From Candidatus Magasanikbacteria bacterium RIFOXYB2_FULL_38_10 (GTDB lineage: Bacteria > Patescibacteriota > Patescibacteriia > Magasanikbacterales > UBA10003), in the NCBI GenBank assembly GCA_001783145.1, contig MFQT01000017.1:30119-94118 (forward strand): a stretch of 64,000 nucleotides of DNA. Direction: 5' to 3'. Of this stretch, positions 2,810-7,029 are shown piece after piece. The position numbers and the translations under genes were made by a program. Each line of letters starts with the position of its first letter. The first letter of the stretch is position 1. The notes under the pieces are model-generated. The model was not told the origin of the DNA. It worked only from the letters and a program-made list of their open reading frames with translations, and made no database searches.

Positions 2810-3982
2810 ATGAATAAAGGAAAAGAAGAAACAATTTTTAGTTCCATTGAGAAAAATTTTGCGGAAGAATTTAAAAGCAAAAAAAGAGTGATTTTTTCCG
2901 GCGGTGGCACTTTAGGACCGGTAATGCCTCTACTTGCCGTTTTTCAGGAACTTAAAAAACAATTTCCCGATCAATATGATTTTTTGTGGGTAGGCGTTAA
3001 AGGCGGTTTGGAAAAAGAGGTGACGGAAAAATATGGTTTAAAATTTGTCGCTTTGCCCGAAGCTAAATTACGCCGCTATTTTAGTTGGCGCAATTTTAGC
3101 GATATATTTAATTTTGCGGCGGCCTTTTTTAAAAGTTGGATGATTATAAAAAGATTCCAGCCTAATATTTTAGTTTCGGCCGGCGGTTTTATGAGCGTAC
3201 CTCTGCATTTGGCTGCCTGGTTGCAAAAAAAAACCACCTTAATTCATCAAGAAGATGTGGAAGTGGGTTTAGCCAATAAAATTATGGCTCTCTGGGCAGA
3301 TCATATCACTGTGTCTTTGGAAAAAAATTTGCAAAATTTTCCGGCCAAGAAAACTTTATGGATTGGTAATCCTGTGCGCGAGGGGGTTTTATCAGGCCAA
3401 AAAGAAGAAGCTATTAAAGATTTTTTATTGGACCCAAATTTGCCAACGGTTTTGGTTTTGGGTGGAGGCACGGGCGCTCTGTCTTTAAATAAAATGATCG
3501 CCGGCAATATTGGAGAGTTGGTTAAAAAATGTCAAATAATTCATATGCTGGGAAATGGCAAAGAAATGGCCGTGCCTTTTTTTCAAGGTGGGGAATTGGA
3601 TGCTCTTATTAAAGAAAGATATCATCCTGTAAAATTTTTAAATGAAAAAATACTTTCTCGCGCCTATGCCATTAGTGATGTAGTGGTGACTCGTGCGGGA
3701 TTTTCTACTTTGACCGAGCTGGCAGTTTTAGGCAAGCCGTTTGTGGCCGTGCCTATTCCAGATAGCCATCAAGAAAAAAATGCCAGAGTATTTTGGTCTA
3801 AAGCCCAGACGCCGGTATTTTTAAGCAATCATGAGCCGGTGAGCGGTTTAATCAAAAAAATTTTGGATTTGGTATCTAACAAAGAAGAGCAATTATATTT
3901 GGCCCGTCATTTGGTGAAAATAATACCCAAAGACGCGCGAGAGAAAATGTCTTTTTTGATCAATGGTATTTTGAGTAATTAG
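2810..3982 (+). CDS. murG: undecaprenyldiphospho-muramoylpentapeptide beta-N-acetylglucosaminyltransferase
   Basis: GT28-like protein with an N-terminal SGGGTLGPVMP glycine loop, GGGTGA and a C-terminal VTRAGFSTLTE. dcw-cluster context. Confidence 0.85.
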   Translation: MNKGKEETIFSSIEKNFAEEFKSKKRVIFSGGGTLGPVMPLLAVFQELKKQFPDQYDFLWVGVKGGLEKEVTEKYGLKFVALPEAKLRRYFSWRNFSDIFNFAAAFFKSWMIIKRFQPNILVSAGGFMSVPLHLAAWLQKKTTLIHQEDVEVGLANKIMALWADHITVSLEKNLQNFPAKKTLWIGNPVREGVLSGQKEEAIKDFLLDPNLPTVLVLGGGTGALSLNKMIAGNIGELVKKCQIIHMLGNGKEMAVPFFQGGELDALIKERYHPVKFLNEKILSRAYAISDVVVTRAGFSTLTELAVLGKPFVAVPIPDSHQEKNARVFWSKAQTPVFLSNHEPVSGLIKKILDLVSNKEEQLYLARHLVKIIPKDAREKMSFLINGILSN

Positions 3983-4045: not shown

Positions 4046-4234
4046 GTGGCTAAGATTAACAGGTACAAGGTTCGTTGCCACAACCTGGGCAAGGATCAAA
4101 CCTCATATTTTTATTTGTTTACAAGGGTTAACCCCTTTTTACCTCTATTATATTATAGCATTGTTGAGAAAGGACCGCAAGATAAGCGAAATAATTAAAA
4201 AACCCCACACAAATTTTAACAAGAGTCTTTTTTT

Positions 4235-4255
4235 TGGTGACCCGGCTGGGGATCG
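4235..4255 (-). repeat. 21-nt exact copy of the tRNA-Lys 3' end (acceptor/T-arm half including CCA); pseudo-tRNA or att-like scar
   Basis: tggtgacccggctggggatcg at 4235-4255 is identical to 4302-4322, in the same orientation. The sequence diverges immediately afterwards and cannot fold as a tRNA. Confidence 0.8.
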
Positions 4256-4301
4256 TGACCAAGCGTACCAGAGAAGCTGTGCAGCGCTTTTGTTTTTTAA
4301 A

Positions 4302-4377
4302 TGGTGACCCGGCTGGGGATCGAACCCAGGACCATCAGCTTAAAAGGCTGTTGCTCTACCAGCTGAGCTACCGGGCC
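4302..4377 (-). tRNA. tRNA-Lys (anticodon UUU), CCA encoded
   Basis: Minus-strand read GGCCCGGTAGCTCAGCTGGTAGAGCAACAGCCTTTTAAGCTGATGGTCCTGGGTTCGATCCCCAGCCGGGTCACCA folds as a 76-nt cloverleaf. Anticodon loop is CTTTTAA and the T-loop is TTCGATC. Confidence 0.9.
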
Positions 4378-4456
4378 GTCACTAGTGTTTAAAAAAACTG
4401 ACAAAAAATTTTAATTGATTTTTTACCAAAAAGTTTCACCCACTAGCATACACCTC

Positions 4457-4485
4457 TTGACAAAATCTGTCAAATGTGCTATGAT
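4457..4485 (+). promoter_or_regulatory. near-consensus sigma70-type promoter upstream of the GC-rich ORF
   Basis: TTGACA (4457-4462), a 17-nt spacer, then TATGAT (4480-4485) preceded by TGc (extended -10). The -35 box lies in the palindrome TTGACAaaatcTGTCAA (4457-4473). Confidence 0.6.
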
Positions 4486-4665
4486 ATGTAGTTAATTTGA
4501 TCTTTGATAATAGGGTGAAGGCTTTGTCCAACCAGATAAGTTTGGCTAAATTAAGGCAAAAATAAAGAAAATAAGATTAAATTTGTCCTAAATAAGCTTG
4601 ATTTATCCGGTTGGGCGAAGGTTTTCGCCCTCTCGAGGAAGGCTCCCCTTAAGGAGCTGTTTGGT

Positions 4666-4671
4666 AGGAGG
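4666..4671 (+). promoter_or_regulatory. Shine-Dalgarno site of the GC-rich ORF
   Basis: AGGAGG lies 5 nt upstream of the ATG at 4677. Native genes in this window lack such motifs. Confidence 0.7.
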
Positions 4672-4676
4672 TTCCT

Positions 4677-6155
4677 ATGGAACTCGTTCGTCAGTTCTTC
4701 GCGGCCCTGGTGTCCATGACGGACACGGCCATCGCGGCCGTGTTCCAGAGCCTGGAGCAGGAGAACGTGCTGACCAGCGCGCGTCTGCGCGCCGCGGTCA
4801 AGAAGAGCGAGGGTAACGAGTTCCGGCGCCTCAAGGTGGCTCTGGGCTATGCCGTGGACCACCAGCTCACCCTCTCCATCGCGAACATCCCGTTCATGAC
4901 GGACGAGGAGCTGGTGCTGGCGTTCCTGGAGGCCACGCCCGACCAGCGCGCCGAGTTCGTGGTGGCGCTGGACGAGATCACCGACGAGAGCGGTGTGCGC
5001 GGTCAGCAGGTGCTCTCCTCCGTGCAGGAGCGCCTCAACATCGAGAAGGCCGTGGCGCAACGCCAGGCCGAGGAGGAGCGTCTGGAGCGCGAGCTGGCCA
5101 AGAAGGCCGCCAGGCGCCTGGAGCTCCTGGAGCACACGGATCGCCTGATCCTGCACATCCTGCGGACCGGCGACGCCTGCGATATGACCGACGAATTGGC
5201 GGTCCAGTACATAGAGGATCAGCCCCTGGGCTACTTCAAGGTGCTCTCGGACATCGCCGGGCTCATCACCCCCGCCACCGCGGCGGAGGGCGAGGCGGCC
5301 CTGACCGGCCTGGACGCGCTGCGCGGCGGCACCATCGTGGACATGCTCACGGGCGCCACCCTGGCGGTGAAGGACGCGCGGAGCATCCGGGGTTGCTTCA
5401 TCACCGACGAGGAGGGCGCCAAGCGCCTCGTCAAGAAGCTCCCGAAGAAGGAGGGGGGAAGGGAGATCTACAGGCACCTGACGGGCGAGAGCCCCGAGGG
5501 TGTCCTGGAACGCCTGGACAGGCACGACGCGGAGTACGCGGCGCGCCAGAAGCGCGACGAGGCCTTCGTGGCCGAGGTGAAGAAGGCGATCGGCGAGGCC
5601 GACGCCACCTTCGTGGCCCTGGCCAAGGCGGTGGCCGAGCTGGTGGAGATCAACTCCGTCGGGACCAGCGGGCCCGAGGAGTGGAAGATGCGGATCATCC
5701 GCGACATCTCCGGCGAGTTCGGCGAGTTCCTGCGGCGGTCCTACATCGGCCAGTTGCGCCAGGCCTACCCCGACGCCTCGACGATCCCGGCGCTCAACGC
5801 CCGGATCGAGGAGGTCAAGGCGGCCTGGAACCAGGCGCGCGCGACGGGCGCCCCCTCCTACGAGCAGGATGCCATCCTCAAGGAGGTCCACGTCCTGGAG
5901 CGGCACCGGCAGTACCTGTCCGAGGCTCCCCAGCTCAAGCCGCAGCAGGGCAAGCCGACCGTCGGCACCCACGCCCACACCAAGGGCAAGGAGGGTGCCC
6001 CGGTCCTGACCGACCACTCCCGCGACGAGGACAGGGAGCGCAAGGAGCGCGAGCGGCGCGACGCCGACCGGAAGCGCACCCTGGACACCAAGGGCAAGGG
6101 CGGCGGCCAGCCCCAGCTCACGGGCAAGGGCAAGCACCAGAAGGGCAAGAAGTAG
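4677..6155 (+). CDS. orphan 492-aa protein on a high-GC island; helix-rich with a lysine/glycine/arginine-rich charged C-terminal tail; function unknown
   Basis: Long ORF with SD plus ATG. 36 of the first 40 codons end in G/C, a strong third-position bias that marks this frame as coding. No TM segment, signal peptide or catalytic motif recognised. Confidence 0.75.
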   Translation: MELVRQFFAALVSMTDTAIAAVFQSLEQENVLTSARLRAAVKKSEGNEFRRLKVALGYAVDHQLTLSIANIPFMTDEELVLAFLEATPDQRAEFVVALDEITDESGVRGQQVLSSVQERLNIEKAVAQRQAEEERLERELAKKAARRLELLEHTDRLILHILRTGDACDMTDELAVQYIEDQPLGYFKVLSDIAGLITPATAAEGEAALTGLDALRGGTIVDMLTGATLAVKDARSIRGCFITDEEGAKRLVKKLPKKEGGREIYRHLTGESPEGVLERLDRHDAEYAARQKRDEAFVAEVKKAIGEADATFVALAKAVAELVEINSVGTSGPEEWKMRIIRDISGEFGEFLRRSYIGQLRQAYPDASTIPALNARIEEVKAAWNQARATGAPSYEQDAILKEVHVLERHRQYLSEAPQLKPQQGKPTVGTHAHTKGKEGAPVLTDHSRDEDRERKERERRDADRKRTLDTKGKGGGQPQLTGKGKHQKGKK

Positions 6156-6285
6156 CCCAGCTACTTCGGCTCCTCAAGTGCCCCCAGTGTCCCTGGCAAC
6201 ATTAACAACGCGGCGGCCAACTAAATAACCGCCCACAACGTCACATGATCTTTCAACAGGTTACAGAGGGTCGCAACGATCCTTA

Positions 6286-6340
6286 CCGGCAATCAAAGTT
6301 CAGTGCTAACACACTGTTCCCACGATTGCCGGTTTTTTTT
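6286..6340 (+). terminator. rho-independent terminator closing the GC-rich cassette
   Basis: Outer stem CCGGCAATC (6286-6294) pairs with GATTGCCGG (6324-6332). Inner stem CAGTG (6301-6305) pairs with CACTG (6312-6316). Followed by T8 (6333-6340). Confidence 0.65.
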
Positions 6341-6365
6341 ATTTCTGCTAAAATGAAGTAAGGAT

Positions 6366-6440
6366 TTTAATAATAAATTTATCTTTTTTGCAGACGATGG
6401 CTTTAGTCCGCGGCGCAAAAAAGATAAATTTATTATTAAA
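6366..6440. repeat. perfect 26-bp inverted repeat with a 23-nt GC-richer loop
   Basis: 6366-6391 (tttaataataaatttatcttttttgc) is the exact reverse complement of 6415-6440. The loop is agacgatggctttagtccgcggc. Confidence 0.85.
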
Positions 6441-6450
6441 TAAAATCATT

Positions 6451-7029
6451 ATGCCCCTTAATCAAAAATATTTTAAAACCCTTAGTACTGTGTTTGCCGA
6501 TTGGGAAAAGTCCCGCCGCTCTGTTCAAGAAGCCTCGGCCAATGCTTTGCAAAAAGCCAAACAGGCTATTTTTTCTTTTCATCGCAATAATTGGAAAGAG
6601 GCCGAGGTTCTACTTAAAACCGCTTTGGAAAACATTAAAATCGCCGGCAAACTGCAAGAAAAAAGCATTGCCACAGATGATGAAGGAATTTTTAAATCAT
6701 CTTTAGAAGAATATGCCGAAGCTGAATTATTTCGTCAGTTTTTGTATAAAGAAACTATTGGTCCAATAAAAAATTTGGAAATTTCTCCGGAAACATATAT
6801 GGGTGGCCTAGCGGATTTGGTAGGGGAGATTCAGCGTTATGCTATGAAAATGGCCACGGAAAGAAATTTTAGCGAACTAACGCGCGCGGAAAAAGTGACC
6901 GAGGAAATTATGGGCGCAATTTTGTCTTTTAATTTTACCGGTTATCTGCGTACTAAATTTGATCAAGCCAAAGGCGCCCGTCGCAAAATAGAAGAGATCG
7001 CCTACGAAGTAAGTTTGCGTCAAAAATAA
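6451..7029 (+). CDS. translin/TRAX-family protein
   Basis: About 190 aa and all-helical. YMGGLADLVGEIQRYAM matches the translin/TRAX signature (G-x-ADLTGELMR). The ORF opens at 6388, inside the hairpin, and the ATG at 6451 is the likely start. Confidence 0.6.
   Translation: MPLNQKYFKTLSTVFADWEKSRRSVQEASANALQKAKQAIFSFHRNNWKEAEVLLKTALENIKIAGKLQEKSIATDDEGIFKSSLEEYAEAELFRQFLYKETIGPIKNLEISPETYMGGLADLVGEIQRYAMKMATERNFSELTRAEKVTEEIMGAILSFNFTGYLRTKFDQAKGARRKIEEIAYEVSLRQK

Follow-up and report, generated by a model that had tools for sequence, protein, structure and literature searches.

A direct repeat of the tRNA-Lys(UUU) 3' end in Magasanikbacteria as a candidate relic of site-specific integration

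The tRNA-Lys gene and the second copy of its 3' end

The window, that is, the whole 64-kb stretch of Magasanikbacteria DNA analysed here, contains a tRNA-Lys(UUU) gene with an encoded CCA at positions 4302 to 4377 of the minus strand, as placed by ARAGORN, by Rfam (tRNA, 68.6 bits) and by BLAST against relatives. The gene lies in a conserved order in which murG points towards it from one side, while on the other side a divergently oriented GC-rich ORF is followed by a translin-like gene and a GT2 gene in the same direction. A cysteine-rich micro-ORF (4056 to 4106, minus strand) is located between the terminator of murG and tRNA-Lys. The tRNA is identical at 76 of 76 positions to that of two related loci, L007 and L034, and those of L038, L040 and L041 are identical over the parts that these contigs cover. 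A promoter-like site for tRNA-Lys, TTGACA-17-TATGCT at 4445 to 4473 (minus strand), is conserved in L007 and L034.

On its own strand the tRNA-Lys gene ends in ...CTGGGTT-CGATCCCCAGCCGGGTCACCA, and the last 21 nt of this end, from C56 in the T-loop through the 3' strand of the T-stem, the 3' strand of the acceptor stem and the discriminator to the encoded CCA, are present a second time. The 21-mer, TGGTGACCCGGCTGGGGATCG, has exactly two exact occurrences in the window, at 4235 to 4255 and at 4302 to 4322 on the same strand, and it can be assigned to the tRNA-Lys 3' end because ARAGORN and Rfam place the tRNA where they do. Read in the orientation of the tRNA, the copy at 4302 to 4322 (minus strand; the proximal copy) is the working 3' end, and the copy at 4235 to 4255 (minus strand; the distal copy) follows as a direct repeat 46 nt downstream, with no tRNA body attached. 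The exact duplicate and its spacing, which a first, sequence-only reading of this DNA had pointed out, are thereby confirmed by exact search, ARAGORN and Rfam. In 100 dinucleotide-preserving shuffles no match to the 21-mer occurred even with three mismatches allowed, and it is the sole G+C-rich exact repeat of such length within the window.

The two copies are separated by a spacer of 46 nt, TTTAAAAAACAAAAGCGCTGCACAGCTTCTCTGGTACGCTTGGTCA (4256 to 4301, minus strand), which is unrelated to local sequence, lacks a complement to the acceptor strand and has no obvious terminator. Its homology to the tRNA body upstream of the 21-mer is not significant (1278 of 5000 shuffles score as high in the window). 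On the insert side, 2 nt from the distal repeat, the spacer holds a conserved 13-mer, TGGTACGCTTGGT (4258 to 4270, minus strand), and across this junction a T-arm-like imperfect hairpin with one T-C mismatch can be read from the sequence (GCTTGG / TCACGATC / CCCAGC; 4245 to 4264, minus strand). The distal copy does not behave as a tRNA or a tRNA-like RNA. ARAGORN makes no call there, Rfam returns no match to it even at E<=10, and it matches neither a cloverleaf nor a partial tRNA model, in agreement with the earlier claim that the second copy cannot fold as a tRNA. With permissive thresholds, Rfam searches of this region and of the L040 and L045 loci matched the tRNA itself alone. A tmRNA or two-piece tmRNA was rejected as well, as ARAGORN is silent and the acceptor is identical to that of tRNA-Lys.

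The locus in related lineages

The loci of relatives were retrieved by anchoring on MurG and on the adjacent GC-rich ORF. In each lineage the interval from the tRNA 3' end to murG is short and different. Among eight related lineages, four have a single clean tRNA end, one has an exact 20-nt repeat and two have degenerate relics. The closest relative, L041 (MraY 93%, FtsW 90%), has a single end followed by 1.3 kb with two unknown genes, and the 46-nt spacer is missing from it. Single ends are also found in L034 (MurG about 70-72%), L042 (MurG 59%) and L038 (MurG 73%), in which a terminator shared with murG comes directly after. L040 (MurG 73%) has the last 20 nt of the tRNA, from G57, in two exact copies that are 150 nt apart, and the DNA inserted between them bears no relation to the spacer of the window. 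L007/L029 (MurG 73%) have a degenerate distal copy about 60 nt downstream, with the sequence TGGTACGCTTGGT-TAGCCTCCAGCCCTTTCACCA, and in L045 (MurG 62%, FtsW 69%) a relic, GGGTACGCTTGGTTCGAGACCCAGCC, is located at the contig end. The heptamer GATGACC beside the murG terminator in L040 may be a third relic in that lineage. No repeat of the tRNA-Lys end was found at the more distant Patescibacteria loci.

Given this patchy presence among relatives, the duplication cannot be called a conserved part of the locus. The sequence-only reading had named occurrence in all relatives as the finding that would speak against a recombination scar, and this is not what is seen, since the repeat is absent from four of the eight lineages, the closest one included. 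It had also looked to related genomes for larger elements between the repeats. The alignment across relatives does reveal variable content (nothing, 46 nt in the window, about 60 nt in L007 or 150 nt in L040), but none of the relatives compared has a larger insert between repeats.

In integration at tRNA genes, the gene is regenerated by the incoming DNA and its original end is displaced (PMC4383910). In L007 and L040, what follows the distal copy can be aligned to the flank of the single tRNA end in L038 (in each case 0 of 2000 dinucleotide shuffles score as high), whereas after the proximal copy comes a different terminator hairpin, TTACTCC...GGGGT, that is common to L007 and L040 (19 of 2000 shuffles score as high). 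A native flank on the distal copy, as these alignments show it in the subclade of L007, L038 and L040 (clade B), is what would be expected of a tRNA end displaced by integration. In the window, the corresponding alignment with L041 and L034 is suggestive at best: the distal flank scores 25 and the proximal flank 2, but homology to the tRNA flank of L041 is not significant (330 of 2000 shuffles score as high). Because of these shuffles, it is by analogy that we infer the distal copy to be the native one in this genome as well, and we propose that it could be the displaced original 3' end, at an attR-type junction.

The junction between insert and repeat has features of its own. In the window, L007 and L045, a non-tRNA motif of 12-13 nt, GGTACGCTTGGT, lies next to the repeat, towards the insert; it abuts the repeat directly in L007 and L045 and lies 2 nt away in the window. 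In all three it is followed by a loop and then by CCAGCC, and the DNA further out is unalignable. The 13-mer TGGTACGCTTGGT is identical in L007/L029 and agrees at 12 of 13 positions in L045. The hairpin stem has the same sequence in L007 and L045, and since the stems are identical across lineages no covariation is testable. A derivation of GGTACGCTTGGT from the tRNA is not significant. We propose that the 13-mer, by its size and position, may be an element-side recombinase half-site (P-arm core site) that faces the 3' half of the T-stem. The first tRNA position included in the identity is C56 of the T-loop for the window and G57 for L040, 1 nt apart despite unrelated adjoining arms, and such coincident boundaries of two unrelated inserts point to a fixed crossover site. 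The motif GGTACGCTTGGT also provides a concrete search key for the sought element and recombinase.

In L007, the distal copy has kept about 13 of its 21 matches to the tRNA and has a 2-nt gap, next to a 13-mer without any change. Such drift beside an intact 13-mer is not explained by neutral decay of a single event. Possible explanations are that the crossover lay nearer the CCA end, that the relic was re-used as an att site by later elements, or that a functional hairpin is under constraint.

Several other observations were made at these loci. In L009, a distant member of the Patescibacteria, pieces of tRNA-Lys are found upstream of the intact gene (6220-6520), namely one of 22 nt that runs from the D-arm to the anticodon and one of 16 nt that covers the anticodon stem and the variable region, about 90 nt apart, an arrangement that resembles a decayed tRNA-Lys copy split at the anticodon loop, and an inverted copy of the tRNA-Lys 3' end lies downstream of the gene. 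The intergenic space of L041 (4474-5769, with ORFs of 96 aa and 208 aa among others), L006 (6300-7243) and L036 (1400-2143) holds small lineage-specific genes of unknown function. These have no detectable bounding tRNA repeats, and searches of Pfam and PHROGs assigned them to no family and turned up nothing phage- or integrase-like. The space is a variable-cargo spot independent of the repeat. Finally, MurG of L041 (3109-4317) is only 62% identical to MurG of the window (2810-3982) despite the values for MraY (93%) and FtsW (90%), and the DNA just downstream of murG (terminator and micro-ORF) is again about 95% identical, which suggests that murG was replaced by recombination in the lineage of either the window or L041.

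Possible origins of the repeat

We consider it reasonably likely that the distal 21-mer is a decayed att-type scar of site-specific integration. Foreign DNA would have entered the tRNA-Lys(UUU) gene at the T-loop by the action of a site-specific recombinase, and the incoming DNA would have brought its own copy of the last 21 nt, which would complete the gene as the proximal copy. That the incoming DNA was the source of the proximal copy is suggested by analogy with clade B. The original 3' end would have been pushed downstream to become the distal copy, preceded by the element-derived half-site GGTACGCTTGGT. The interior of the element, any recombinase gene included, would later have been deleted, leaving 46 nt and an extreme integrase-less relic of a CIME-like type (see below). 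From its sequence and its absence from the closest relative, the 46-nt spacer is read as inserted DNA, and the comparison of loci supports the view that recombination has struck the 3' end of tRNA-Lys repeatedly in this lineage. As an att-type scar the repeat is genuine but ordinary, a known kind of event in a poorly explored phylum. To our knowledge, few mobile elements have been described for Magasanikbacteria, a small-genome group of the candidate phyla radiation. The locus lends modest, indirect support to the idea that the T-loop of tRNA-Lys is a repeated target of site-specific integrative elements in these bacteria, and it suggests that their genomes trim such insertions down to tens of bases.

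Reiter in 1989 and Williams in 2002 are said to have described tDNA-integrated elements with a displaced 3' tDNA fragment. The crossover sublocations recognised by Islander are the anticodon loop, the T loop and the T/acceptor stem junction, and 3760 of 3919 islands have a 3' fragment (PMC4383910). Like these islands, the locus combines an intact, full-length tDNA with a fragment in direct orientation on the predicted side (a 3' fragment, downstream and on one strand with the tRNA gene), in the window and in L040 alike the fragment begins at a crossover sublocation in the T-loop/T-stem region, and such an interval is present in some relatives and absent from others (L041, L034, L038 and L042). 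The regenerated end, as proposed here, would likewise be supplied by the inserted DNA. Unlike Islander islands, which span 2-200 kb, the locus has an interval of 46 nt (about 60 nt in L007 and 150 nt in L040) and neither integrase nor cargo. No integrase was found in the window, in which ten integrase-sized ORFs are all housekeeping genes, nor at the loci of relatives, their cargo genes included. With such a short interval and no integrase, the length and integrase filters of Islander would reject the locus.

Streptococcal ICE/IMEs at tRNA-Lys decay to att-flanked remnants (CIMEs) and undergo tandem accretion (PMC5704250). A likeness to CIMEs would lie in att sites that were kept after loss of the integration and transfer genes, as we propose here, and both repeat copies and the conserved junction motif are present as candidate att sites. 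The two copies in L040 are candidate serial att copies at one tRNA-Lys 3' end, as in repeat visits by related elements with shared specificity; they are compatible with cis-mobilisation, and the possible third relic in that lineage would, by analogy, fit tandem accretion and decay of the CIME type. Known CIMEs measure kilobases and their mobilisation has been shown experimentally, whereas tens of bases are at issue here. We know of no partner element in this phylum.

The islands at ssrA in Dehalococcoides have a conserved 15-bp motif beside a 20-bp repeat, with insertion in the T-loop, and some of their repeat-bounded intervals without an integration module have been discussed as possible CIMEs (PMC3146451). 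The locus shares with them a direct repeat of about 20 bp of the 3' end of a tRNA or tRNA-like gene and a short conserved motif upstream of each repeat that has no match to the target gene. In contrast, serine-recombinase modules, many genes and a tmRNA target characterise the Dehalococcoides islands, and none of these is found here.

The exact 21-mer has no match in viral contigs and nine in metagenome contigs; eight of these fall by chance in high-GC coding DNA, and the ninth belongs to the species of L007. In viral contigs, neither TGGTACGCTTGGT-N6-8-CCAGCC nor the hairpin of the L040 insert has a match, and the eight matches of the 17-mer GATCCCCAGCCGGGTCA were rejected, all being chance matches in high-GC phage genes. 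BLAST of the spacer and distal copy against phage and plasmid collections gave no match, and for the spacer viral and metagenome collections were likewise empty. Thus, the circular or phage contigs with the 21-mer as attP that the sequence-only reading had hoped for did not appear, and the viral, metagenome, phage and plasmid collections yielded no attP-bearing, circular or full-length element. Its view of tRNA-Lys as an integration site gains from the geometry, the variable site and the recurrent recombination, but its view of the 46 nt as the remnant of a larger element found no counterpart, with no integrase, attP or full-length element in any collection. Since the inserts are all tiny, several independent near-complete deletions are needed. 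Either these small genomes delete very efficiently or the units were always small.

It is conceivable, but rather unlikely, that the duplication arose without a site-specific recombinase, by a Campbell-type single crossover with a small circular or foreign DNA that carried a tRNA-Lys 3' fragment, by homology-facilitated illegitimate recombination anchored in the tRNA, or by replication slippage. The identity of the tRNA across species offers a ready homologous anchor, a Campbell-type or illegitimate event would give the same topology as integration, and the very small inserts together with the lack of any integrase or attP are in keeping with such routes. The proximal flanks of L007 and L040 moreover resemble native tRNA-Lys downstream regions, as if they came from the tRNA-Lys locus of a relative (73 of 2000 and 182 of 2000 shuffles score as high, respectively). 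However, 21 nt are short for RecA-dependent recombination, and these routes predict neither a T-loop boundary that two unrelated inserts share within 1 nt nor a non-tRNA 12-mer at the junction that is common to three lineages. Tandem duplication by slippage was rejected, as TRF finds no tandem repeat and hence no head-to-tail unit, and the spacer is not repeated past the second copy, bar an A-run.

A different scenario, which we regard as improbable, is that the distal unit (GGTACGCTTGG, loop, CCAGCC...) is maintained as a functional element. It would act as a T-arm-like hairpin or tRNA-end mimic in a read-through transcript of tRNA-Lys and would signal processing, termination or regulation, for instance of the micro-ORF downstream. 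Three lineages with otherwise unalignable intergenic DNA have the 12-mer and CCAGCC without a single change, and in L007 they have outlasted the rest of the copy. In addition, the unit of L045 is located 28 nt upstream of the start of the micro-ORF, and the read-through precursor is predicted to pair the 5' acceptor strand of the tRNA with the distal copy. Yet the unit is missing from four or five lineages that have both the tRNA and the micro-ORF, the closest relative included, and its spacing to the two varies widely. Nor do the RNA analyses favour it: there is no covariation, the stems being identical, the spacer and relic fold no better than shuffles (z = -0.25), the fold of the precursor is marginal (z = -1.86) and no Rfam family matches.

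We give still less credence to the idea that the inserts are complete, miniature att-flanked cassettes or, alternatively, that the T-arm-like relic has taken on the role of a signal for RNA processing between tRNA-Lys and the cysteine-rich micro-ORF downstream. The cassettes would form a family of about 67-170 bp, each with a replacement tRNA-Lys 3' end, sometimes with a terminator of its own and in some cases with the conserved 12-nt recombinase half-site, and their movement between Magasanikbacteria would depend on an unlinked recombinase that acts in trans. Last, there is next to no chance that the repeat is an assembly or chimera artefact: several same-species contigs do break at or just past the tRNA, where the GC-rich gene starts, but these breaks do not fall between the repeats, and both copies are present with an identical spacer in six same-species contigs from different samples and pipelines (NCBI, JGI [two], ENA [two] and Logan), whose independent concordance effectively refutes an artefact and shows that the repeat is real and fixed in the population.

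The GC-rich gene and the cysteine-rich micro-ORF

Two neighbours of the repeat, a gene with extreme GC3 and the micro-ORF with 16 codons, are more unusual than the repeat itself and merit their own study. The GC-rich ORF (4677-6155, plus strand) has a GC of 0.69 and a GC3 of 0.95 in a genome with 0.36 GC. Syntenic orthologues lie next to tRNA-Lys in L007 (6639-8057), L034 (4656-6113) and L042 (7646-9118), and another orthologue is found in L035 (51-1532). Their proteins are 24-55% identical, and their GC3 of 0.78-0.99 compares with 0.36-0.45 GC in the surrounding DNA. It is odd in itself that synonymous GC stays so extreme from species to species in genomes that are AT-rich. The product has no Pfam or PHROGs match, and its C-terminal tail is Lys/Gly-rich.

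The sequence-only reading had tied the repeat, circumstantially, to a GC-rich island, which is this gene. The tie does not hold, because at least three other species have the orthologue in synteny, which indicates that the gene was inherited vertically rather than delivered at this tRNA, and because the tRNA separates the repeats from the gene, which leaves no mechanistic link of the gene to the scar. With the gene no longer taken for an island brought in at this site, a false lead is removed. The breaks of same-species contigs mentioned above fall in the tRNA, at the beginning of the GC-rich gene or further inside it (L003, L004, L005 and L044 end at window positions of about 4349-4740, and L002 at about 5556) and probably reflect loss of coverage in the 69% GC stretch.

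The promoter-like site of tRNA-Lys (minus strand) overlaps with a divergent one of the GC-rich gene (TTGACA-17-TATGAT, plus strand) at 4445-4485. A palindrome, TTGACAAAATCTGTCAA, is common to both divergent promoters and is kept in L007, L034 and L042. The GC-rich gene has a leader of roughly 200 nt with a long imperfect hairpin (4514-4629), which explains spurious Rfam matches to miRNA precursors.

The micro-ORF, MRFDPCPGCGNEPCTC, is of the CPxCG type with four cysteines. It is present in the window, L041, L006, L036, L034, L042 and L045 and absent from L007, L038 and L040. Its variable alignment columns are distributed over the three codon positions as 4/3/15, which clearly marks it as coding. 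No Shine-Dalgarno sequence is obvious, and a candidate promoter of its own, TTGCGG-17-TATAAT, is located at 4176-4148.
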